This document shows, in pieces, positions 1,379-55,066 of a stretch of DNA of 64,000 nucleotides. Position 1 is the first letter of the stretch. Each line of letters begins with the position of its first letter. The DNA comes from Escherichia coli (GTDB taxonomy: Bacteria; Pseudomonadota; Gammaproteobacteria; Enterobacterales; Enterobacteriaceae), in NCBI RefSeq assembly GCF_001677475.2, contig NZ_CP015229.1; one strand, written 5' to 3'. The position numbers and the translations under genes were made by a program. The notes beneath the pieces are model-generated. The model worked only from the letters and a program-made list of their open reading frames with translations. It was not told the DNA's origin and did no database searches.

Positions 1379-1525
1379 GGTCATTCTCCTTTACGGTGAT
1401 AACCGTCGCGTAAGCAAAAAATTGCCCCATTTTTTTGGATTCCTCAGCGACAACAACTGTCGATTTTTAGTAAATATCTATCCGGTACGAAGCCCGGCCT
1501 CTTGGTATGAATGATTGGTTTGAAG

Positions 1526-1562
1526 CAAAAAATAACCGACGCTGATGAAACGTCGGTTTTTA
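1526..1562 (-). terminator. Rho-independent terminator hairpin (accgacg...cgtcggt) flanked by A and T runs, downstream of yeeY
   Basis: Inverted repeat with flanking A6/T5 runs read directly from sequence. Confidence 0.5.
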
Positions 1563-1644
1563 GTCATTTTTTGACAGCGGCGCATTGTGCCTAAATAGGG
1601 GGGAAATGACAAGAGAATGAGAGGCTTGTCATAATAATTTTTCT

Positions 1645-4312: not shown

Positions 4313-4363
4313 ATGACACGCGTTCAATTTAAACACCACCATCATCACCATCATCCTGACTAG
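4313..4363 (+). CDS. hisL: his operon leader peptide HisL (MTRVQFKHHHHHHHPD, 7 consecutive His codons)
   Basis: 16-codon ORF with His7 run read directly; too short for ORF track. Confidence 0.95.
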   Translation: MTRVQFKHHHHHHHPD

Positions 4364-4423
4364 TCTTTCAGGCGATGTGTGCTGGAAGACATTCAGATCT
4401 TCCAGTGGTGCATGAACGCATGA

Positions 4424-4460
4424 GAAAGCCCCCGGAAGATCATCTTCCGGGGGCTTTTTT
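4424..4460 (+). terminator. his attenuator terminator (gcccccggaag...cttccgggggc followed by T6)
   Basis: Perfect GC-rich hairpin plus T-run between hisL and hisG. Confidence 0.9.
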
Positions 4461-4508
4461 ATTGCGCGATTGATAACGGTTCAGACAGGTTTAAAGAGGA
4501 ATAACAAA

Positions 4509-5408
4509 ATGACAGACAACACTCGTTTACGCATAGCTATGCAGAAATCCGGCCGTTTAAGTGATGACTCACGCGAATTGCTGGCGCGCTGTGGCATTAA
4601 AATCAATCTTCACACCCAGCGCCTGATCGCGATGGCAGAAAACATGCCGATTGATATTCTGCGTGTGCGTGACGACGACATTCCCGGTCTGGTAATGGAT
4701 GGCGTAGTAGACCTTGGGATTATCGGCGAAAACGTGCTGGAAGAAGAGCTGCTTAACCGCCGCGCCCAGGGTGAAGATCCGCGCTACTTTACCCTGCGTC
4801 GACTGGATTTCGGCGGCTGCCGCCTTTCGCTGGCAACGCCGGTTGATGAAGCCTGGGACGGCCCGCTCTCCTTAAACGGTAAACGTATTGCCACCTCTTA
4901 TCCTCACCTGCTCAAGCGTTATCTCGACCAGAAAGGCATCTCTTTTAAATCCTGCTTGCTGAACGGTTCTGTTGAAGTCGCCCCGCGCGCCGGACTGGCG
5001 GATGCAATTTGCGATCTGGTTTCCACCGGTGCCACGCTGGAAGCTAACGGCCTGCGCGAAGTCGAAGTTATCTACCGCTCGAAAGCCTGCCTGATCCAGC
5101 GCGATGGCGAAATGGAAGAATCCAAACAGCAGCTGATCGACAAACTGCTGACCCGTATTCAGGGTGTGATCCAAGCGCGCGAATCAAAATACATCATGAT
5201 GCACGCACCGACCGAACGTCTGGATGAAGTCATCGCCCTGCTGCCAGGTGCCGAACGCCCAACTATTCTACCGCTGGCGGGTGATCAACAGCGCGTAGCG
5301 ATGCACATGGTCAGTAGCGAAACCCTGTTCTGGGAAACGATGGAAAAACTGAAAGCGCTGGGTGCCAGTTCAATTCTGGTCCTGCCGATTGAGAAGATGA
5401 TGGAGTGA
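4509..5408 (+). CDS. hisG: ATP phosphoribosyltransferase HisG (start at [12 protein letters not shown])
   Basis: ORF translation matches HisG; operon context. Confidence 0.95.
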
Positions 5409-5413
5409 TCGCC

Positions 5414-7796
<2,383 letters not shown>

Positions 7797-14189: not shown

Positions 14190-15596
14190 TTAATCCAGCC
14201 ATTCAGTATGGAACACACCTTCTTTATCAATGCGCTTATAAGTATGCGCACCGAAATAGTCACGCTGTGCCTGGATCAGGTTTGCAGGCAGAACTGCGGC
14301 GCGGTAGCTGTCATAATAGGCAACCGCAGCCGCGAAGGTCGGAACCGGGATACCGTTCTGTACTGCATAAGCAACGACATCACGCAGCGCCTGCTGGTAG
14401 TCATCGGCAATTTGCTTAAAGTACGGAGCCAGCAGCAGGTTAGCGATCTGTGGATTTTCGGCATATGCATCGGTGATTTTCTGCAGGAACTGCGCACGGA
14501 TGATGCAGCCAGCACGGAAAATCTTCGCGATTTCGCCGTAGTTCAGATCCCAGTTGTATTCTTCAGACGCAGCACGCAGCTGAGAGAAGCCCTGAGCGTA
14601 AGAAACGATTTTGCCCAGATACAGCGCACGGCGAACTTTTTCGATGAACTCAGCCTTGTCGCCTGCTGACTGAGCTTGCGGACCAGAGAGAACTTTAGAT
14701 GCGGCAACGCGCTGATCTTTCAGAGAAGAGATATAACGTGCAAACACAGACTCGGTAATCAGCGACAGCGGTTCTCCGAGATCCAGCGCGCTCTGGCTGG
14801 TCCATTTACCGGTACCTTTGTTAGCCGCTTCATCCAGGATCACATCAACCAAGTAGTTACCGTCTTCATCTTTTTTAGTGAAGATGTCTTTGGTGATGTC
14901 GATCAGGTAGCTGCTCAGTTCACCGTTATTCCACTCGGTAAAGGTCTGTGCCAGTTCTTCGTTGGTGAGGTTCAGGCCACCTTTAAGCAGAGAATAGGCT
15001 TCAGCAATCAGTTGCATATCACCGTATTCAATACCGTTGTGAACCATCTTCACATAGTGACCTGCACCATCGGCACCAATATAGGTAACGCATGGCTCCC
15101 CGTCTTCAGCTACTGCGGCGATTTTGGTCAGGATCGGTGCAACCAGTTCATAGGCTTCTTTCTGCCCACCAGGCATAATGGAAGGACCTTTCAGCGCACC
15201 TTCTTCACCGCCGGAAACACCGGTACCAATGAAGTTAAAACCTTCGGCAGAAAGCTCACGATTACGACGAATGGTGTCCTGGAAGAAGGTATTACCACCA
15301 TCAATAATGATGTCACCTTTATCGAGGTATGGCTTGAGGGAATCAATAGCAGCATCCGTGCCTGCACCTGCTTTAACCATTAACAGGATGCGACGAGGCG
15401 TTTCCAGAGATTCAACGAACTCTTTCACCGTATAGTAAGGAACCAGTTTTTTGCCTGGATTTTCGGCAATCACTTCTTCCGTCTTTTCACGGGAACGGTT
15501 GAAAATAGAGACGGTATAACCACGGCTTTCGATGTTAAGCGCAAGATTGCGCCCCATCACTGCCATACCGACTACGCCAATCTGTTGCTTTGACAT
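14190..15596 (-). CDS. gnd: 6-phosphogluconate dehydrogenase (decarboxylating) Gnd
   Basis: [21 protein letters not shown]... 468 aa; synteny. Confidence 0.95.
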
Positions 15597-15787
15597 TGTT
15601 TACTCCTGTCAGGGGGTTACCGCGGGATTGCGCGGCTTGAATATGAAACAGATGTTAACTCAAGTTACATGAATGTGTGTAGTGCTGAATTTCATTAATG
15701 CAACGAATACCGTTCATCTTCCTTTATACAGACATCCACTTGTAACCAAACCTACGCGCACATGTAAGCGAAGATAAATCTATAACA

Positions 15788-17212
15788 TCAAGAAATTAAA
15801 GATATAATACTCCCAAGCACATTCGTAACATATTGCTTAGCCTGATTTTCATCACTGCCTTCAGCGTAACAACGGAGTTCAGGGGCATTTCCGGAAGGAC
15901 GGAGATGTATAATATCACCATTAGTTAAAATAAATCTTGCACCATCAGTTTCATCAATAGTGGAACAGGATAATGATTCATACCCTAATTTATTAAAGAA
16001 ATTATTAGGTGATGAAATGGCATTTTTTATAATTTGCTGACTTGACTCTGAAGGAAAGTTTTTCACTCTATCTGACCAAGTAAATCGCTGTGGAAGATTA
16101 TTAACCAGTTGAGAGATAGTACTATTGCGAGAAGCTATTAAGAGCATTAACGCTGGTAATACTGCATCTCGAGTAGGTAACGCATTTAATTCTTTGCCAT
16201 TAATTTGTAAATCGGAGGCAAGCAGAAAACCGCCATTAGCTTCAAAACCAGCGACTGAATCAAATTGTTTAGCAAGTTCTGAAAACGCTGCAATCACATA
16301 AGGAGAGCCAATTTTAGTCCGTTGTGTATTTGCAAATTTATTAGATTGTTCAATTGCTGTATTACAACTCACTGGAATAGCCAACGCCTTGATATTAAGT
16401 TCAATAGCCGTAAGTAATCCCAGAATATCGCCTCGTAGCCATTCACCATTTTCATCGGCAACTAAAGGGCGATCACCATCACCATCTGTTGAGAAAATTG
16501 CATCGAGATTGTATTTTTTAGACCACTCTCTTGCAAGTAGACGATCTTCTTCGCTAACTGCTTCCGTATCAATAGGAACGAACTCATCACTTCTACCGAG
16601 GGAGATGACCTCAGCACCCAATTGATTAAAAAGTGGAGCATATAAATCTCGTCCTGCACTAGAATGTTCATAGATCCCAATTCTCTTCCCCTTTAAAATA
16701 TCGGAATTAAAAAGAGAAACATAACGTTCTAGGTATGAATCCGCACCTTGAGTACTTGTTTCAAGATGAGGTAATACATCTACAGGAGAAAAAACATATT
16801 CACTATTTACTATTGCTAACTCATCCTCTTTTGTGATTTCACCATCTGGACGGTAAAATTTCAAACCATTACGGTCAAAAGGTATGTGACTACCGGTAAC
16901 CATTATGCAGGGGATGTTTTTCTGCATGGAATAATGAGCTAATGCAGGGGTCGGAATTACACCATGATATTCAACAGCGAACCCATGTTGTTTGATAGCG
17001 AACGCGCATGCCTGAGCAATTTCATAACTACTCGGGCGATTGTCAATGGCTAAAGCAACTTTATTAAAATTGTATTTGTCATCAATAACAGAAAGAAACG
17101 CATGACTGAAGGCTGCACAAACATCATGGGTAAAATCGATGACTAAACCACGAGCACCACTAGTGCCGAAAGCAATATTGCTATCGGTAATGATTTTGTT
17201 AGCATTTAACAT
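15788..17212 (-). CDS. O-antigen cluster phosphohexomutase (phosphomannomutase-like, divergent; TGSHIP and DGDGDR motifs)
   Basis: alpha-D-phosphohexomutase-like motifs in ORF translation; position downstream of manC; sequence clearly different from cps CpsG in this window. Confidence 0.65.
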   Translation of the reverse strand: MLNANKIITDSNIAFGTSGARGLVIDFTHDVCAAFSHAFLSVIDDKYNFNKVALAIDNRPSSYEIAQACAFAIKQHGFAVEYHGVIPTPALAHYSMQKNIPCIMVTGSHIPFDRNGLKFYRPDGEITKEDELAIVNSEYVFSPVDVLPHLETSTQGADSYLERYVSLFNSDILKGKRIGIYEHSSAGRDLYAPLFNQLGAEVISLGRSDEFVPIDTEAVSEEDRLLAREWSKKYNLDAIFSTDGDGDRPLVADENGEWLRGDILGLLTAIELNIKALAIPVSCNTAIEQSNKFANTQRTKIGSPYVIAAFSELAKQFDSVAGFEANGGFLLASDLQINGKELNALPTRDAVLPALMLLIASRNSTISQLVNNLPQRFTWSDRVKNFPSESSQQIIKNAISSPNNFFNKLGYESLSCSTIDETDGARFILTNGDIIHLRPSGNAPELRCYAEGSDENQAKQYVTNVLGSIISLIS

Positions 17213-17217
17213 GATGA

Positions 17218-17964
17218 TTACTTCTTAATAAATTGAGGAAGTTTGGATAGATTTTTATACGCTAAAGCTATTGGCCAGATAATACCATTCTGTTTCATAG
17301 CGCGAATATCTTCCATTGATTTATTGATCATGGAAGATGCTGAGCGATTGCTAATTCCACCAACACGCATTTTCACTAATACTTTTGGTAAGTAAGCTAT
17401 TGAAATACGCTGTTTTAAAATATAACGTAATAATGAGTCATAATCAGCAGATATTCGGTAATCTAATGAAAAACAACCAAACTCACTATAACAATCGCGT
17501 TTCATATAAAATGATGGGTGTGGCGGCATCCAACCTAGTTTCATCTTCAAACGGCTAAATGAGCCACTCTTCCATAATCTAATACGTTTAGTCGTATCAT
17601 TTTGGGCAACATACTCCAAATCACCATAAACAGCATCACACCCTGAACTTTCAAATGTTTTTACTATATCTGCAATAGCATCGTCATAAGCAAGTAAGTC
17701 ATCAGAGTGCAAAAATCCAATTATATCACCAGAAGCTGCTTGAATACCTTTATTCAGTGCATCATAAATACCATTGTCGGGTTCGCAAATGATTGTTGAA
17801 ACTCTTGTACATTTACTCTTGATTAGCTCTATTGTATTATCTTTCGATGCTCCATCTACAACTATATATTCAATATCTGAATGCGTTTGTTTTTCCAGAG
17901 AGAGTAATGTATCAAGAAGCGTTTTTTCACTATTATAAGTTGCTGTGATAATTGAAATCCGCAT
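17218..17964 (-). CDS. Glycosyltransferase family 2 (WcaE-like)
   Basis: N-terminal ISIITATYNSEKTL...VVDGASKDNT motif typical of GT2; O-antigen cluster context. Confidence 0.75.
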   Translation of the reverse strand: MRISIITATYNSEKTLLDTLLSLEKQTHSDIEYIVVDGASKDNTIELIKSKCTRVSTIICEPDNGIYDALNKGIQAASGDIIGFLHSDDLLAYDDAIADIVKTFESSGCDAVYGDLEYVAQNDTTKRIRLWKSGSFSRLKMKLGWMPPHPSFYMKRDCYSEFGCFSLDYRISADYDSLLRYILKQRISIAYLPKVLVKMRVGGISNRSASSMINKSMEDIRAMKQNGIIWPIALAYKNLSKLPQFIKK

Positions 17965-19370
17965 TAGTATCCAACTCCAGAAGAAGAAACTCTTATAACA
18001 TCATCCTCTTCCAAGTAGACTCCTGATCTAACCTCAATTATTTCAAGTGGGATCTTGCCAGGATTTTCAATGGCATGTGGAACACCAACAGGTATATATG
18101 TTGATTCATTTTCTGAAACAAGATAAGTTTTCTCCTCAAGATGAACTTTAGCTGTCCCCGAAACAACAATCCAATGTTCAGTACGATGGTAATGGATCTG
18201 CTTAGCGGTAATGTGACCCGGTAATACAATCACATGTTTAACCTGAAAGCGTTGCCCTTCAGCTATAGTGTCATGACTGCCCCAAGGACGAAAAATTTCC
18301 CGATGTTGTAAATATTCTGTTCGATTATTCTTTTTAAGCTGAGCTACGATGTTTTTAACTTGCTGAACTTTATCTTTATGAGCAACTAATACTGCATCTT
18401 TCGTTTCAACGACAACCAAATCCTTTACGCCCACGGCACCAATAAGTCTATGCTGCGAATAAAGATAACTATCTGTAGCATCCTCAACCAAAACATCACC
18501 ACGAATGGCATTGCCGCTTTGGTCTTTTGAACTTATTTCCCACAGCGCAGACCATGACCCAACATCACTCCATTGCGCATCCAATGGTACGACTACAGCT
18601 TCTGCTGTTTTTTCCATAACGGCATAGTCGATTGACTCTTCAGGGCAGCAAGAAAAAGAAGAATTATCCAAGCGGATAAAATCTAAATCTTGAGTCGAGG
18701 AAGCTAAGGATTGCTGACAACTCTCTAGAATATCTGGACGGAATTTTTTTAGTTCATCGATGAATACAGATGCTCTGAACATAAACATTCCACTATTCCA
18801 AAGATAACCGCCATCTGACAAATACCGCTGAGCTAATTCTAGCTCTGGCTTTTCAACAAAAGCTGCAACTTTATAACCTTGCCCACTAAGTGGATCACCT
18901 GACTTAATATAGCCATACCCTGTCTCTGGAGCTGTTGGAACAATGCCAAATGTGACCAACTTACCTTGCTGCGCAAACTCCTTCGCGGCCAAAACTGCTG
19001 TAATGAAACTATTCTCATCCTGAATTTCATGGTCAGCCGCAAGAACTAAAAGTATAGGATCCTCTCCACTTGCCGTTGCCTGAAGCGCTGCAAGGGCTAC
19101 AGCTGGTGCCGTATTGCGCCCAACAGGCTCAAGCAAAATCCCACTATGCTTTAAACCAACTTTACGTAATTGTTCAGCAACGATGAAACGATGTGATTCA
19201 TTACAAATGATCAAAGCAGGATTGTGTTCAACCTTTTCTAGCCGTCGCATAGTCTCTTGCAACATAGTTAAGCGGCTATTTAAAGACAGAAATTGTTTCG
19301 GATAAAGTGTACGTGAAAGAGGCCATAATCTGGTACCAGATCCACCGGCCATGACAACGGGAAGTAGCAT
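17964..19370 (-). CDS. manC: Mannose-1-phosphate guanylyltransferase / mannose-6-phosphate isomerase (ManC), O-antigen copy
   Basis: ORF translation closely parallels cps CpsB in this window ([19 protein letters not shown]... C-terminal cupin); AT-rich codon usage. Confidence 0.9.
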   Translation of the reverse strand: MLLPVVMAGGSGTRLWPLSRTLYPKQFLSLNSRLTMLQETMRRLEKVEHNPALIICNESHRFIVAEQLRKVGLKHSGILLEPVGRNTAPAVALAALQATASGEDPILLVLAADHEIQDENSFITAVLAAKEFAQQGKLVTFGIVPTAPETGYGYIKSGDPLSGQGYKVAAFVEKPELELAQRYLSDGGYLWNSGMFMFRASVFIDELKKFRPDILESCQQSLASSTQDLDFIRLDNSSFSCCPEESIDYAVMEKTAEAVVVPLDAQWSDVGSWSALWEISSKDQSGNAIRGDVLVEDATDSYLYSQHRLIGAVGVKDLVVVETKDAVLVAHKDKVQQVKNIVAQLKKNNRTEYLQHREIFRPWGSHDTIAEGQRFQVKHVIVLPGHITAKQIHYHRTEHWIVVSGTAKVHLEEKTYLVSENESTYIPVGVPHAIENPGKIPLEIIEVRSGVYLEEDDVIRVSSSGVGY

Positions 19371-19375
19371 ATCTA

Positions 19376-19837
19376 TTACCTTGATATAAAATAATTTTTG
19401 GTATATTGATGAACTGTAGTGCTATTAAGCAACGTTACTACATCAAACCACTTGTAGGAATTATGCTGAATCGTTGGTAGGCGAAGTTGCTGCGGATTAA
19501 TTTGAATTTCATATCCATGCACTACGTAGTGTGTAGAAAAATCTAGTTCAGAAAAATTGTCATTGTAAAAGTGTTCATACACACCAAGAAATATGGCCTC
19601 ACCAAGACTAGTTTGAACGCCTAACTCTTCATATGTGATCCTTTTAAAAGCATCCTCGAATGACTCGTCCTTAAAAATTCGCCCTCCAGGCACAAACCAA
19701 TAATTTTTTGCGGGGCGATTCAGGCGCTGCCCAAGCAGCGCCTCTCCTTTATCATTTCTAATTATGAGGTCAATCGAGATTAGAGGAGTATGCTTGACTA
19801 TTGTTTTAAATAACTCATATTCTAATCTCTTTTTCAT
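19376..19837 (-). CDS. gmm: GDP-mannose mannosyl hydrolase (NUDIX), O-antigen copy
   Basis: NUDIX-type protein parallel to cps Gmm/WcaH in this window (YWFVPGGR motif). Confidence 0.85.
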   Translation of the reverse strand: MKKRLEYELFKTIVKHTPLISIDLIIRNDKGEALLGQRLNRPAKNYWFVPGGRIFKDESFEDAFKRITYEELGVQTSLGEAIFLGVYEHFYNDNFSELDFSTHYVVHGYEIQINPQQLRLPTIQHNSYKWFDVVTLLNSTTVHQYTKNYFISR

Positions 19838-19839
19838 AA

Positions 19840-20805
19840 CTATCCCCGAAAAGAATCAATATTCTCAAGAAACCATTGATATGTTAATGATAGACCTTCA
19901 TGTAAATTATAGCGATGTAGCCAGCCCAAGTTTTTGAGTCGGGTAACGTCCATAAGCTTTCGCGGGGTGCCATCTGGTTTGGTCGCGTCAAAAACAATTT
20001 TTCCTTGATAACCCACTACAGAAGCCATTGTTTCAGCCATTTCACGTATAGAACAATCCACCCCCGTACCAACATTAATATGAGATAACATTGGTTGTGT
20101 ATTTTGTTGATAGATTGTGTCCTCTAACTCCATCACATGAACCGAGGCAGCAGCCATATCATCAACATATAAAAACTCACGCATCGGTGTTCCCGTGCCC
20201 CAGACAATAACTTCTTGTGCACCACTTTCTTTTGCCTCATGGAATCTACGCATAAGCGCCGGAATAACATGGGAGTTTTCAGGATGGAAGTTATCATTCG
20301 AACCATAAAGATTAGTCGGCATTACACTTCTATAATCGCGACCATATTGACGATTATAAGACTCACATAATTTTATGCCCGCAATCTTAGCAATTGCGTA
20401 TGGCTCATTAGTTGGCTCAAGTATGCCCGTCAAAAGTGCAGACTCTTTCATCGGCTGCTCTGCAAATTTTGGATAAATGCAGCTAGAGCCTAAAAAAAGT
20501 AATTTTTGAATTCCAACCTTGTGAGCTGAATGTATAATATTACTCTCAATCATGAGATTCTGATAAATGAATTCTGCTGGAAATGTATTATTGGCATAAA
20601 TACCACCTACTTTTGCCGCAGCAAGATAAACCTGATCAACCCTCTCTCTCTCAAAAAATGCCTCAACATCCTTCTGCACGGTCAGATCGAGTTCTTTGTG
20701 TGTTTTAACCACTAACTCGATATCATCACGCAGCGATAATTGTCGGCAAATAGCAGAGCCAACCATGCCCTGGTGCCCAGCAACATATACTCTTTTCTTT
20801 ATCAT
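19840..20805 (-). CDS. fcl: GDP-L-fucose synthase (GDP-4-keto-6-deoxymannose 3,5-epimerase/4-reductase), O-antigen copy
   Basis: 321 aa, colinear with cps Fcl in this window ([12 protein letters not shown]...). Confidence 0.9.
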
Positions 20806-20808
20806 GTA

Positions 20809-21942
20809 TTAACGCTCCAGAGAAACCGAAACATCATAACCATGGCTTTTAAGAAGTGCATGTTGTTTCGCTTTTAACAAATCGCTAGCAACCATTTCTG
20901 CACACATCTCTTCAACTGTAATCTCTGGTTCCCAGCCTAATAGATTTTTTGCTTTTGCAGGGTCACCTAAGAGTGTTTCAACTTCAGCAGGACGGAAATA
21001 ACGAGGATCAACCCGAACTATAACGTCTCCAACATTTACACCAATAGCACAATCGGAAACTTTATTAACTACTGTGGCTATCTCATCTACACCCTCACCA
21101 GTGAATTCAAGTTCAAGTCCGACTTCTTTAGCAGCCATACGGACAAATTCACGCACAGATATCTGTTTACCTGTGGCGATGACAAAATCCTCTGGATGAT
21201 CTTGCTGAAGCATCATCCATTGCATGCGAACATAATCTTTAGCGTGTCCCCAGTCACGCAACGAATCCAGATTACCCAAATATAAGCATTGTTCGATCCC
21301 CTGAGAAATATTAGCTATTGCACGAGTAATTTTACGAGTAACAAAAGTTTCTCCACGGCGTGGCGATTCATGGTTAAAAAGAATACCATTACAAGCATAT
21401 ATACCATAAGATTCACGGTAGTTAACTGTTATCCAGTAAGCATACATCTTAGCTACAGCATAAGGCGAACGCGGGTAGAATGGAGTTGTTTCACGCTGAG
21501 GAATCTCTTGCACTAAACCAAAAAGTTCTGAAGTAGATGCTTGATAGAAACGTGTTTTTTTCTCCAGCCCACAGATTCGTATTGCTTCTAATAAACGTAA
21601 TGTACCTATTGCATCTACATCTGCTGTATATTCTGGTGACTCGAATGATACTGCGACATGGGATTGTGCACCAAGGTTATAAATTTCATCCGGTTGAATT
21701 TCTTGGATTAAACGGATCAGATTCGATGTATCTGTTAAATCCCCATAGTGTAAAATAAAATTAGGCTCATCAACGAATCGTGATTGATATATATGATCAA
21801 TTCTATCAGTGTTAAATGACGATGCTCGGCGTTTTATACCATGTACTTCATAACCTTTTTCAATAAGAAATTCAGCAAGATATGAACCATCTTGTCCAGT
21901 TACGCCTGTGATAAATGCAACTTTTTTATTCATTTTAATCAT
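20809..21942 (-). CDS. gmd: GDP-mannose 4,6-dehydratase, O-antigen copy (start may be at MNKK, 21930)
   Basis: Colinear with cps Gmd in this window ([37 protein letters not shown]). Confidence 0.9.
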
Positions 21943-21951
21943 GTTATGTTC

Positions 21952-22983
21952 CTAAATATTCAACTCATTATAAACTTTAATCGTTTCATTAACACATTTT
22001 GACCATGAAAATTTTTGCGCCTGCAGTAAACCTCTTTCGATCATAACATTTCTTTTTAAATTAACTAATTCTAAAGCTTCTTTTAACGTAAACTCATTAA
22101 TATCATCAATATAAATAGGCGCATTCCCCCCTACTTCCGGCAACGAGGATGTGTTTGCACAAATAACTGGACATCCGGCCTGCATAGCTTCTAGGACAGG
22201 TATTCCAAACCCCTCATAACTGGAAGGGTAAACAAGTGCATATGCAGTATTATACTGTATATTTAAATCTTCATTACTCAAAAATGTAAAATGTTCATAT
22301 CTATTTTTTAAATATTTTTCAAGGAGTTCTCTTTCATATTTTTTAAGCGAGCCTCCGCCTACAATTGTAAGCTTTAAGCCATGTAATTTCCCTACAGCTT
22401 TGACTGCAAGAACGAAATTTTTATAACCTTCTCTGGCACCGACAAACAAAACTGAATTATTTACTCTCATATCAGATATGTTAGAAATATGTTTATATGA
22501 TGGGGATACACCATTATAAATCACTCTAATTTTATCTTCACTAATTGGACAGTACTTAAGTAAATCTCTAGCAGTGTTGTTTGAAATACAAATTACGATA
22601 TCACTATTCTTGATAGCATGATATTTTTGAAGAGAATGAATAAATTTTGACATTCCTCCCCTGTATTTTTCATAGGTAAAATCATGAACAGTTGTAACAT
22701 TTTTCACATTCAAATTAGGATTTTTATGAACTCGATAATAACTTGAGTGTAAAACCCTAGTTTTAATATCACTTACATTTCTATATCTTTCTAAAATTCT
22801 TGGCTCACGATATTGCAACTTTAAGTCACTTGTATCAAACTCAAATTCTTTATTTTTATACAATAGAATTTCAGCTTGGTAATTTGATTTCACCATTCCT
22901 TGGATCAACTCATTAAAGTATACACTTATTCCACCAAATGATTGGAGATTATAAATAATCCCATCGATAGTTACCATTATCAT
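21952..22983 (-). CDS. Glycosyltransferase family 1 (GT4-like)
   Basis: C-terminal EGFGIPVLEAMQAGCPVI motif typical of GT-B retaining glycosyltransferases. Confidence 0.75.
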   Translation of the reverse strand: MIMVTIDGIIYNLQSFGGISVYFNELIQGMVKSNYQAEILLYKNKEFEFDTSDLKLQYREPRILERYRNVSDIKTRVLHSSYYRVHKNPNLNVKNVTTVHDFTYEKYRGGMSKFIHSLQKYHAIKNSDIVICISNNTARDLLKYCPISEDKIRVIYNGVSPSYKHISNISDMRVNNSVLFVGAREGYKNFVLAVKAVGKLHGLKLTIVGGGSLKKYERELLEKYLKNRYEHFTFLSNEDLNIQYNTAYALVYPSSYEGFGIPVLEAMQAGCPVICANTSSLPEVGGNAPIYIDDINEFTLKEALELVNLKRNVMIERGLLQAQKFSWSKCVNETIKVYNELNI

Positions 22984-24236
22984 CGCCCTCGCAAGGTAAT
23001 ACGTTCGATTAGAACGAACAATATCAAAAAGAAGATCAGTAACAATACATATGCAGGCCCAGAAAAATAAGTTCCAAATGAAGGTGAAATGAGAATTATA
23101 GAAAGCAAAAAATAGGATGCAGAGTTCGTAATTACTTTTGCATTAAACATTTTAAGCTTAGCAAAAATATAGCCATAAAAGATATTCATAGGTGAAAGAA
23201 AAGTTAAAATGACCAGTCCAACATATCCATAATCAACAAAATTATCCATCCCTTTTGAAAAAGCAGGTGTATGCCCCGACTCTGCAGCTCCTGGATAATA
23301 GATTTCATTTACATGCAGAAATCCATATACAAAAGGTTTATCAGGAAACAAACCTCTCGGTATATAAGACCAAAACTGGCTGAAATAGACTGTGCCATTG
23401 AAAAATTTAACCACACCTTTATCAATATCTTGCAGCAAATAAATACTGTTTTGATACTGGTCAAAATAAGACAATACTACATCGACATTCATATTTCCAA
23501 TAGCTAAAAATAAATTATAGAGAATGGCACACGCTGCCAGAGGTGTAACTAAAATCAGGCCAAATTTTAGAAATCTAGATTTATTAAGACTTAACACTGC
23601 AAGATAAAAAATCGCAAATGAAAGAATAAAGGTTTTCGATCCAAGAAAAAAAACCAAGGTACAATAGAATATCGCGCATAAAAATAATTTTATTTCCGAG
23701 CGTAAAGCCAACGCTCTAGAAAAATAAGATACTGAAAGCATACTTAAAGAAAAGGCATACAAAAAACCATTACCTTCTCGATAGTTTTGATAACCATCCC
23801 TGGGATTCGTCAACCATCCAGAAATACCTATTTCTGACTTTGAAGAAAGAAGAACAAATAATGTAACAAACAGAACCAATGTAATATTTGATATTCTTTT
23901 TAATTTTGTATGCGAAATTAAGCAAGTTAAATAGCTCTCTCTATTTTTGAATATTATATTAAAAATAAAATAAAATAAAATTATAGATAAAACACCCACA
24001 AAAGAGTATATGTTATATATGAATAAAGCCTCATTATAATATTGATTTAACGCAAAGTCTGAACCATAGAAAAGAGGGGCCAGAATATTTTCCAATAGAA
24101 AAACCGGGAATAAAATAATGGCGCAAATGGTAAAGGGATTGATAATTGTAAGTCTTAGCGTTTTCGTCGCTAATAAAGAAAAAGAAAAATATAGTACTAC
24201 AGCGAGTGTAACATTTAAACAATATATTATTACCAC
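22980..24236 (-). CDS. wzy: O-antigen polymerase Wzy (candidate)
   Basis: 418-aa highly hydrophobic multi-TM protein with no catalytic motifs of other families, very AT-rich, located in O-antigen cluster. Confidence 0.6.
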   Translation of the reverse strand: MVIIYCLNVTLAVVLYFSFSLLATKTLRLTIINPFTICAIILFPVFLLENILAPLFYGSDFALNQYYNEALFIYNIYSFVGVLSIILFYFIFNIIFKNRESYLTCLISHTKLKRISNITLVLFVTLFVLLSSKSEIGISGWLTNPRDGYQNYREGNGFLYAFSLSMLSVSYFSRALALRSEIKLFLCAIFYCTLVFFLGSKTFILSFAIFYLAVLSLNKSRFLKFGLILVTPLAACAILYNLFLAIGNMNVDVVLSYFDQYQNSIYLLQDIDKGVVKFFNGTVYFSQFWSYIPRGLFPDKPFVYGFLHVNEIYYPGAAESGHTPAFSKGMDNFVDYGYVGLVILTFLSPMNIFYGYIFAKLKMFNAKVITNSASYFLLSIILISPSFGTYFSGPAYVLLLIFFLILFVLIERITLRGR

Positions 24237-30573: not shown

Positions 30574-30612
30574 CACGCTACCGCCCCTGGCTTTACAGCT
30601 ACCAGAGCACTG
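30574..30612 (-). promoter_or_regulatory. JUMPstart element containing ops (GGCGGTAGCGTG) upstream of the O-antigen operon
   Basis: Minus-strand read: cagtgctctggtagctgtaaagccaggggcggtagcgtg, matching the remembered 39-bp JUMPstart consensus. Confidence 0.9.
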
Positions 30613-35902: not shown

Positions 35903-36090
35903 GCCTGATGCGACGCTGGCGCGTCTTATCAGGCCTACAAGACCCGAGCACAGAACCGTAGGCCGGATAAGGCGTTCACGCCGCATCCGGCATTCAGTGC
36001 CTGATGCGACGCTGACGCGTCTTATCAGGCCTACAGGTCCCGAGCACAGAACCGTAGGACGGATAAGGCGTTTTACGCCGCATCCGGCAA
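35903..36090. repeat. BIME/REP cluster: two tandem ~90-bp units (gcctgatgcgacgctg[gc/ac]gcgtcttatcaggcctaca...ccgtagg.cggataaggcg...ccgcatccggca)
   Basis: Two near-identical palindromic units read directly; ORF-track ORFs here are spurious. Confidence 0.9.
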
Positions 36091-39126: not shown

Positions 39127-40497
39127 TTACTCGTTCAGCAACGTCAGCAGAGTTCGCGTTCGCGCTTCCATCAGCGGCACATCACCGCGCGATTCCACAT
39201 TCAGGCGCACCACCGGTTCGGTGTTGGAGGAGCGCAGGTTAAAGCGCCAGTCGGCAAAGGTCATGCTGATGCCATCGGTGCGATCCACCGCCAGCGCCTC
39301 ACGGCTAAAATGCTGTTCCACGCGGTTAATCGCCTCAACGGGATGCGCCAGTTTGCTGTTGATCTCACCGCTTGCCGGAAACGCCGCCATCCGGTCGCGT
39401 ACCAGTTCGCCCAGCGTTTTCTCTTTCAGGCACACCAGTTCGGCGACCAGCAGCCACGGGATCATGCCGCTGTCGCAGTAAGCGAAATCACGGAAGTAAT
39501 GGTGGGCGCTCATTTCGCCACCGTAGATGGCGTCTTCCTTGCGCATCCGTTCTTTAATAAAGGCGTGTCCGGTTTTCGACATCACCGGAGTGCCGCCCGC
39601 GGCAGTCACCACATCAACGGTGTTCCAGGAGAGACGTGGATCGTGGATGATCTTCGCGCCGGGATTTTTTTCGAGGAACGCTTCTGCCAGTAGGCCGACA
39701 ATGTAGTAGCCCTCAATAAACTGCCCTTTTTCGTCAAACAGGAAACAGCGGTCAAAATCGCCATCAAAGGCAATGCCCATATCCGCGCCGTGTTTGATGA
39801 CCGCATTGCGGGTGTCATCGCGGCATTCCGGCAGCAGCGGGTTAGGAATACCGTTGGGGAAATTGCCGTCCGGCGTGTTGTGCACTTTGATCAATTCCAC
39901 CGGTGCGCCGAGGGCGTTAAAGCGGGCTTCGATAGCGTCCACCACCGGCCCCGCTGCGCCGTTCCCGGAGTTGATTACCAGCTTGAGCGGCGTGAGGTTT
40001 TTGACGTTGATATAACCGAACAGGTGATCAACGTAAGCGTCACGCAGATTGATTTGCTGATAGCGACCGCGTTTTGTTTCATCAACGGGAGGAAAGTCGT
40101 TGGCTTCTGCCAGACGCTGGACGTCGCGCAGTCCGGTATCACCGCTGATCGGGCGGGCCCCTTCGCGCACCAGCTTCATGCCGTTGTAATCCATCGGGTT
40201 ATGGCTGGCGGTAACTTCGATGCCGCCATCCACGCCGAGATGGAACGTGGCGAAATAGATCTCTTCGGTGCCGGACATGCCAATATCCAGCACATCGACG
40301 CCCGCATCCTGTAAACCTTTCGCCAGCGCCAGTTTTAAGGTTTCGCTGGTGAGGCGGACATCACCGCCTAACACAATGGTTTTCGGTTTGAGAAATTCGC
40401 CATAGGCACGCCCAATACGCCAGGCAATATCTTCATTCAGTTCTTCGCCTAATTTCCCGCGAATATCGTAGGCTTTAAAGCAGGTTAATTTTTTCAT
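39127..40497 (-). CDS. cpsG: Phosphomannomutase CpsG/ManB (start at [14 protein letters not shown])
   Basis: TASHNP catalytic loop, [16 protein letters not shown] motifs in ORF translation. Confidence 0.95.
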
Positions 40498-40587
40498 GTC
40501 GTTACCCTTTTTCAGGCAATAGTTGGCCCTGACCGAAGCGGCCAATTTTGTTTTTGTCGTTATTTACATCGCGGTTCGGCATTCATT

Positions 40588-55028: not shown

Positions 55029-55066
55029 CACGCTACCGCCCCTGGCTTTTAGCTACCAATACACTG
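55029..55066 (-). promoter_or_regulatory. JUMPstart/ops element in the long 5' leader of the colanic acid operon
   Basis: Minus-strand read: cagtgtattggtagctaaaagccaggggcggtagcgtg (ops GGCGGTAGCGTG). Confidence 0.85.

Follow-up and report, generated by a model that had tools for sequence, protein, structure and literature searches.

The O-antigen gene cluster found in the stretch of Escherichia coli DNA analysed here (64,000 nucleotides of contig NZ_CP015229.1, referred to as the window) ends with a gene that occupies the usual position of manB, with gnd next to it, yet its product is only 22-24% identical (22% by BLASTP, 23.5% by MAFFT) to CpsG, which is encoded in the colanic acid region of the same window. 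The question raised by this locus is whether such a divergent protein is an unusual enzyme or an ordinary phosphomannomutase of another kind. A preliminary description of the DNA had already placed the gene last in the O-antigen cluster and called it very different from CpsG, and it had read the catalytic serine loop as TGSHIP instead of TASHNP with the metal-binding loop DGDGDR kept; the position, the divergence and both loop readings are borne out, the last by translation. Its further suggestions, that the catalytic loop is non-canonical and that the protein is either a phosphomannomutase from a distant lineage or a mutase with altered sugar specificity, fare differently, as the gene is very likely the manB of an O36-type E. 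coli O-antigen cluster and encodes its phosphomannomutase (EC 5.4.2.8).

The coding frame of the gene lies on the minus strand; the plus-strand frame of the same interval contains stops throughout. The translated protein begins with MLNANKIITDSNIAFGTSGARG, as the preliminary description had quoted it, and the positions of its loops and of the neighbouring genes are compiled in Table 1. Pfam domains PGM_PMM_I, II, III and IV are recognized in it with 81.1, 44.9, 27.9 and 33.2 bits, and since all four exceed their gathering scores, the protein is a full-length alpha-D-phosphohexomutase. The elements that characterize this superfamily are present in each domain. The catalytic-serine loop of domain I, T-[AG]-S-H, takes the form TGSHIP within the wider loop MVTGSHIPFDRNG (amino acids 104-116), and it aligns with TASHNP of the structures 1wqa and 9du5 and, in 4hjh, with a loop identical to it. 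The DGDGDR loop fits the metal-loop consensus of domain II, D-x-D-x-D-R (PMC5570346), and both the sugar loop of domain III with its Glu and the Arg/Ser phosphate loop of domain IV are found. A promoter and terminator scan of positions 15500-17400 gave nothing that exceeded shuffled expectation.

Table 1. Location of manB, its predicted active-site loops and associated features in the window.
Feature	Position	Strand	Basis and remarks
gnd	14190-15596		adjoins manB
manB (predicted O-antigen phosphomannomutase), 474 aa	15788..17212	-	ORF; last gene of O36-type cluster
Phosphate-binding loop RPSGNAPELR, aa 438-447	15872..15901	-	translation
Sugar-binding loop GFEANGG with Glu324, aa 322-328	16229..16249	-	translation
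Metal-binding loop DGDGDR, aa 243-248	16469..16486	-	translation
Phosphoserine loop TGSHIP, aa 106-111	16880..16897	-	translation; predicted catalytic Ser108
GT2 glycosyltransferase (wfeY type), 248 aa	17218..17964	-	ORF; between manC and manB
manC	17964..19370	-	NCBIfam TIGR01479 GMP_PMI, 745 bits (cut-off 373); RefSeq annotation
gmm (GDP-mannose mannosyl hydrolase, NUDIX)	19376..19837	-	ORF; collinear E06 annotation
fcl (GDP-L-fucose synthase)	19840..20805	-	ORF; collinear E06 annotation
gmd, 377 aa	20809..21942	-	ORF
JUMPstart element	30574..30612	-	Rfam RF01707, 60 bits (gathering score 35); head of the O-antigen operon ending in manB
ops-like GGCGGTAGCGT	30575-30585		within the JUMPstart element
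cpsG (colanic acid)	39127-40497	-	NCBIfam CpsG model NF011943, 1055 bits

Genes of this type are well represented within the species. DNA matching manB is present in 200 of the 5426 complete E. coli genomes surveyed, in each as a single chromosomal copy; identity reaches at least 99% in seven of these genomes and lies at 90-95% in 147, and among the matches listed the annotation is phosphomannomutase in every case (25/25). The best match is to strain E06 (99.7% at the nucleotide and 99.6% at the amino acid level), in which the gene is a RefSeq 'phosphomannomutase', the wzx and wzy genes are annotated as "O36 family", and the gene order is that of the window: rfbBDAC, wzx, orf, GT2, wzy, GT4, gmd, fcl, gmm, manC, GT2, manB, gnd. 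Two amino acid differences separate the two proteins and nothing of substance distinguishes them. Identity to the window protein then falls to 93.2% for strain 13E0780 (O156), 92.6% for KBN10P04869 and 90.3% for TUM11353 (O79). The ManB proteins of O36, O156, O79 and related serogroups (for example WP_097480453.1, WP_032314593.1 and WP_077890987.1) measure 473-474 amino acids; their genes also stand last before gnd and are flanked by the same manC, with the same wfeY in O36 and O156. The loops MVTGSHIPFDRNG, DGDGDR and GFEANGG are identical in the window ManB and in all four E. coli proteins compared, while the first 33-41 nucleotides of the window gene diverge from some alleles. The structure of the O36 O antigen and its gene cluster have been published (Perepelov et al. 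2014, Carbohydr Res 390:46, as cited in PMC7685785). Judged by its sequence, the window manB is thus an ordinary, already annotated and already known gene of that cluster. With 90-99.6% identity to the annotated ManB proteins of O36, O156 and O79, and with the same loop, the window protein belongs with the ordinary members of the ManB subfamily, which disposes of the suggestion that it might be something other than an ordinary ManB.

The same loops extend well beyond E. coli. In the best 120 of more than 8000 homologues from a database clustered at 90%, TGSHIP and DGDGDR are both present without exception (120/120), and all of the source-named proteins among these 120 are called phosphomannomutase; the genera represented include Escherichia, Enterobacter, Lelliottia, Kosakonia, Citrobacter, Photorhabdus, Providencia, Photobacterium, Vibrio and Aeromonas. 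An exhaustive HMMER search across 1.84 billion representatives of clusters recovered 592 clusters at the 50% identity level with E<=1e-30, and motifs were counted in the 121 full-length representatives within the top 150 matches, which share 39-55% identity with the window ManB. TGSHIP is found in 111 of these 121 and Ile110 in 115, with the Thr, Ser and His of the loop invariant. The three Asp and the Arg of DGDGDR are invariant in at least 120, and the sugar-loop Glu and the residues of the phosphate-binding loop in at least 119; G[FY]EANGG is present in 104 and R.SGNAPE.R in nearly all. Each of the signature loops, TGSHIP, G[FY]EANGG and R.SGNAPE.R, is present in the window ManB. Because TGSHIP is shared by the close relatives, most of the distant ones and the structure 4hjh, it is no anomaly but the canonical phosphoserine loop in a ManB subfamily that is both large and old, contrary to the earlier view of it as non-canonical. 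This subfamily, the clade that unites 4hjh with the O-antigen ManB proteins of gamma-proteobacteria, we take to be the one recorded in the CDD as cd03088 'ManB'.

The conservation of Ile110 and of the catalytic residues among distant representatives indicates that Gly107 and Ile110 are under purifying selection. It also bears on the possibility that the gene is a decaying, redundant copy, in which CpsG would supply mannose-1-phosphate and the replacement of Asn by Ile in the serine loop would be a mark of lost function. Such a history would be in keeping with the intact cpsG in the same window, and with Brucella, which can do without the manB of its O-antigen (wbk) region and in some species has that gene interrupted by an IS element. 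However, Ile is the residue held by nearly all of the distant representatives, the catalytic, metal-binding and phosphate-binding residues are all invariant among them, the ORF is full length with four domains, and the protein is 90-99.6% conserved over four E. coli O types, so that decay is scarcely credible. Functional redundancy is a separate matter: since cpsG resides in the same genome, manB may be redundant for the supply of GDP-mannose.

Among solved structures, 4hjh of Brucella melitensis, deposited as "Phosphomannomutase", is by far the top match to the window ManB (E=1.5e-109, 44% identity over 446 aligned residues). Its loops read MVTGSHIPDDRNGLKFYR, STDGDADRP, GFEANGG and RASGNAPELR, and the four active-site loops of the two proteins match (MVTGSHIP.DRNGLKFYR, STDGD.DRP, GFEANGG and R.SGNAPELR), the metal-binding loop being DGDADR in 4hjh and DGDGDR in the window ManB. 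The Brucella protein is alphaproteobacterial and comes from another genomic context, the LPS core or wbk region; candidates for the gene behind it are BMEII0899 and BMEI1396. The structure, which is unpublished and has been termed a 'paralog' of BMEII0899, has glucose-6-phosphate bound at the active site (PMC7762576). The next matches are the archaeal phospho-sugar mutases 1wqa, 9du5 and 2f7l (E of about 1e-23 to 1e-15), which align over their full length and have a sugar loop of the E-x-N-G-G type akin to that of the window ManB; GlmM structures (1e-18 to 1e-12) and AlgC of P. aeruginosa (about 2e-5) match more weakly. The archaeal mutases and GlmM differ from the window ManB in having TASHNP and SGTEP loops.

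Genetic observations from Brucella may be considered alongside these structures. Mutants in manBcore (BMEII0899) are reported in the literature to have deep-rough LPS, and in a natural rough Brucella vaccine strain a Gly103Glu substitution lies beside the catalytic residue of manBcore, as modelled by the authors on 4hjh (PMC7762576); in manBcore, too, the loop has a Gly followed by the catalytic residue. By analogy, this rough phenotype may offer indirect genetic support for a phosphomannomutase role of TGSHIP-type ManB proteins. The phosphomannomutase CBU0294 of Coxiella was considered as a characterised relative and set aside, being of the AlgC type and 55% identical to AlgC.

The relationship to the other phosphohexomutases of E. 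coli was examined by means of a neighbour-joining tree, in which authentic GlmM and Pgm were represented by the E. coli K-12 proteins. The window ManB clusters with 4hjh and the gamma-proteobacterial ManB proteins, apart from GlmM, CpsG and Pgm, and in MAFFT alignments its identity is 43.5% to 4hjh, 26.0% to K-12 GlmM, 23.5% to CpsG and 17.6% to K-12 Pgm. Within the alpha-D-phosphohexomutases it thus belongs to a clade of its own kind, to which neither CpsG/AlgC nor GlmM nor Pgm belongs. The part of the earlier proposal that invoked a phosphomannomutase of a distant lineage is therefore upheld, while altered sugar specificity finds no support, and the apparent divergence of the gene beside CpsG is explained by a manB subfamily distinct from the CpsG/AlgC type. 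CpsG has VTASHNP and DGDFDR where the window ManB has VTGSHIP and DGDGDR. The sugar-binding loop, which the preliminary description did not mention, departs from CpsG further than the serine loop does, as it reads GFEANGG in the window ManB, GGEMSAHH in CpsG (BLASTP alignment) and GAENSGH in GlmM. What CpsG/AlgC and the window ManB have in common is the superfamily, the four-domain architecture, the predicted reaction and the pathway partner (CpsB or ManC).

Profile models of individual families give a similar account. No NCBIfam equivalog scores above its cut-off for the window ManB: the best is the archaeal GlmM model TIGR03990 (169 bits, cut-off 439), followed by the glmM model TIGR01455 (101 bits, cut-off 448), whereas the PMM/PGM model NF007088 reaches 62 of the 618 bits required by its cut-off and neither the CpsG model NF011943 nor the Pgm model NF005737 matches. 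Identification as GlmM from these scores was rejected, since CpsG, itself a genuine phosphomannomutase, obtains more on the same two models (307 and 183 bits) and the GlmM matches are thus generic to the superfamily.

These results can nonetheless be read in terms of a phosphohexomutase with altered or broadened specificity, towards glucosamine or GlcNAc phosphates for example, which the divergent loops would reflect. The leading NCBIfam models are after all those of GlmM, and K-12 GlmM is slightly nearer to the window ManB than CpsG is. In addition, GFEANGG contains FEAN, which is the motif of the eukaryotic GlcNAc-phosphate mutase PGM3/AGM1, where its Asn touches the N-acetyl group, and not that of PMM/PGM (PMC5570346). 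Yet the GlmM scores are far under their cut-offs, a similar E-x-N-G-G loop occurs in archaeal relatives annotated as PGM/PMM, the PDB matches at E<=1e-3 include no structure of AGM1, and the ligand bound by 4hjh is a plain hexose phosphate. The gene neighbourhood adds further weight against an amino-sugar substrate: the only consumer in the O36 module is that of mannose-1-phosphate, ManC, which requires this substrate, and the module has no enzyme that uses an aminosugar-1-phosphate, while tight linkage to manC is seen in all seven of the gamma-proteobacterial loci examined. Altered specificity is accordingly regarded as highly improbable.

Phosphomannomutase activity, the preferred reading, fits the module in which the gene resides. 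In the window, gmd-fcl-gmm-manC-wfeY-manB form a six-gene unit of low GC content with manB last and wfeY alone between manC and manB; in E06 the counterpart of gmd is interrupted by ISKpn26. The name wfeY has been given to the gene between manC and manB in O36, O41, O156, O159 and O168, all of which have an alpha-L-Fuc-(1->3)-D-GlcNAc linkage to which WfeY has been assigned (PMC10606467). The window GT2 protein is identical to that of E06 (100%), 89-90% identical to those of O156 and KBN10P04869, and 59-63% identical to the products of genes in the same position in Vibrio and Aeromonas. Indeed the order gmd-fcl-NUDIX-manC-GT2-manB is shared by Vibrio furnissii and Aeromonas salmonicida, whose ManB proteins are about 64% identical to that of the window, and Photorhabdus has gmd-fcl-manC-manB. 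Linkage to manC, either directly or one gene apart, was found at every locus examined, that is at seven other gamma-proteobacterial loci in five genera; this argument covers gamma-proteobacterial relatives of at least 63% identity, in which gmd-fcl usually adjoins as well. Among distant members of the subfamily (41-48% identity), the gene context of representatives shows that manC linkage is not universal, and as these members do not always lie beside manC, sugar specificity over the whole TGSHIP subfamily need not be uniform.

A further reading is that the enzyme is a bifunctional phosphomannomutase/phosphoglucomutase, like AlgC and the archaeal phospho-sugar mutases, that would also make glucose-1-phosphate, for instance for dTDP-rhamnose by way of rmlBDAC. 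This would plausibly extend the phosphomannomutase assignment and does not contradict it. It is suggested by the glucose-6-phosphate with which 4hjh was crystallised, by the next PDB relatives (1wqa, 9du5), archaeal enzymes entered under the names phospho-sugar mutase or PGM/PMM, by the RmlA encoded in the O36 cluster, itself a user of glucose-1-phosphate, and by one 48%-identical representative that adjoins homologues of rmlA and rmlC, not manC. E. coli possesses a dedicated Pgm, however, and manB travels with manC and not with rmlA, the modules of O156, KBN10P04869, Vibrio and Aeromonas being without rml genes. To our knowledge, manB is absent from clusters with rml genes whose O units have no sugars derived from mannose, which also counts against a second role. 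Bifunctionality is on balance rather unlikely, though it deserves more credence than either decay or a changed specificity.

The role proposed for the gene follows from its assignment as a phosphomannomutase. Phospho-Ser108 of TGSHIP would act together with Mg2+ bound by Asp243, Asp245 and Asp247 of DGDGDR, and ManB would thereby turn mannose-6-phosphate into mannose-1-phosphate by way of mannose-1,6-bisphosphate. ManC would then form GDP-mannose from mannose-1-phosphate, Gmd and Fcl would convert GDP-mannose to GDP-L-fucose for the O unit, and the WfeY-type transferase would place fucose onto the GlcNAc of the O unit. We infer how the window ManB works and that mannose phosphate is its substrate, with the chemistry taken from knowledge of the superfamily (PMC5570346) and from the glucose-6-phosphate-bound 4hjh (PMC7762576). 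No enzyme assay or complementation of an enterobacterial TGSHIP-type ManB was found in the searchable literature, and no published kinetics were found for the TGSHIP lineage; the substrate assignment thus rests on homology and gene context.

The origin of the gene can be addressed through base composition. The GC content of manB is 38.1% (24.6% at third codon positions, GC3), that of cpsG is 55.9% (GC3 66.1%) and that of the whole window is 48.1%; cpsG also has an algC RNA motif upstream. Given this difference between 38% and 56%, manB very probably came in by lateral transfer from a low-GC donor, together with the other genes of the O-antigen cluster. The unit gmd-fcl-gmm-manC-wfeY-manB would have entered E. 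coli as a low-GC, laterally transferred module, and acquisition of the cluster from such a donor would explain why two phosphomannomutases of one genome are so different.

E. coli thus appears to carry two very different phosphomannomutase lineages. It is improbable, if slightly less so than an altered specificity of this one enzyme, that the substrate range of the TGSHIP/FEANGG ManB proteins differs from that of CpsG/AlgC, whether by being strictly confined to mannose or by including amino-sugar phosphates as well; were it so, the presence of two non-orthologous types of phosphomannomutase side by side in E. coli would have a functional and not only a historical reason. For O-antigen clusters in general, divergence from a resident paralogue or from the TASHNP motif does not signal novelty, because the genes of such clusters are routinely imported from low-GC donors.

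The two phosphomannomutase (PMM) genes of this genome are distinguished by their 5′ regulatory context as well as by their lineage. The start of the colanic-acid gene cpsG (40497) lies directly downstream of an algC RNA motif, whereas the Rfam scan of the window placed no such motif at the O-antigen manB, which begins only 5 nt after the stop codon of its neighbour. The cpsG query matched 5724 places in 4688 of 5426 complete E. coli genomes, and in this set the window's cpsG allele finds no match above 97.7% nucleotide identity, while the O36 manB, by contrast, reaches matches of 99.7%. Coordinates are compiled below, along with other elements that Rfam recognizes in the window.

Features of the window and of compared loci
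Feature	Location	Strand	Remarks
STnc240	1525-1599	-	Rfam
His leader	4339-4462	+	Rfam
Sugar-binding loop of manB product	16229-16249	-	
GT2 gene (248 aa) between manC and manB	17218-17964	-	
JUMPstart heading O-antigen operon	30574-30612	-	Rfam; ops-like core GGCGGTAGCGT
naRNA4 (REP-type element)	35961-36031	+	Rfam
cpsG	39127-40497	-	
algC RNA motif (RF02929)	40502-40551	-	77 bits; gathering score 34
JUMPstart heading colanic-acid operon	55029-55066	-	Rfam; ops-like core GGCGGTAGCGT
Corresponding GT2 gene, locus L007	6250-6996		
Corresponding GT2 gene, locus L009	6249-7004		
41%-identical TGSHIP-subfamily representative, locus L014 (JGI 3300024259)	5001-6428		

The sugar-binding loop of the TGSHIP-type ManB subfamily, G[FY]EANGG, includes FEAN, a motif of eukaryotic N-acetylglucosamine-phosphate mutase (PGM3/AGM1), in which its Asn touches the N-acetyl group (PMC5570346). 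Overall, the manB product resembles the PGM3/AGM1 family too little for that family to show up among the PDB hits.

The GT2 gene located between manC and manB has been named wfeY, and the alpha-L-Fuc-(1->3)-D-GlcNAc linkage has been attributed to it (PMC10606467). Its product resembles WcaE only weakly (41% across the first 101 aa; 68 bits, where the cut-off is 369). E. coli O156 and E. coli strain KBN10P04869 have the manC-GT2-manB arrangement too, with GT2 amino acid identities of 89-90%, and it is conserved with identities of 59-63% in Vibrio furnissii and Aeromonas salmonicida. The wfeY-type transferase and the biosynthesis genes appear to move between genera as a single cassette.

The O-antigen cluster was also compared with that of strain E06, the closest O36 genome (NZ_CM143910.1, 8778-13404, versus window 20809-24236). 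In E06 an ISKpn26 insertion interrupts gmd, wzy carries a frameshift and wzzB an internal stop, and its O-antigen is probably defective; the window has uninterrupted reading frames for both gmd (377 aa) and wzy (418 aa), and the strain looks O-antigen competent.

Within the 50%-identity library, several representatives of the TGSHIP subfamily, among them P0233, P0250, P0257 and P0259, are predicted to be very long, at 1000-4400 aa; the mutase match to them falls into two stretches and extends only over aa 12 to ~410. Fusions, gene-calling errors or introns in eukaryotic genes could account for such proteins. The L014 representative has neighbours with TrmB, Cpn60/TCP1 and Toprim domains, and the gene context of the locus holds no polysaccharide genes nearby, which suggests that the TGSHIP subfamily reaches beyond polysaccharide-cluster contexts, and possibly into archaea.
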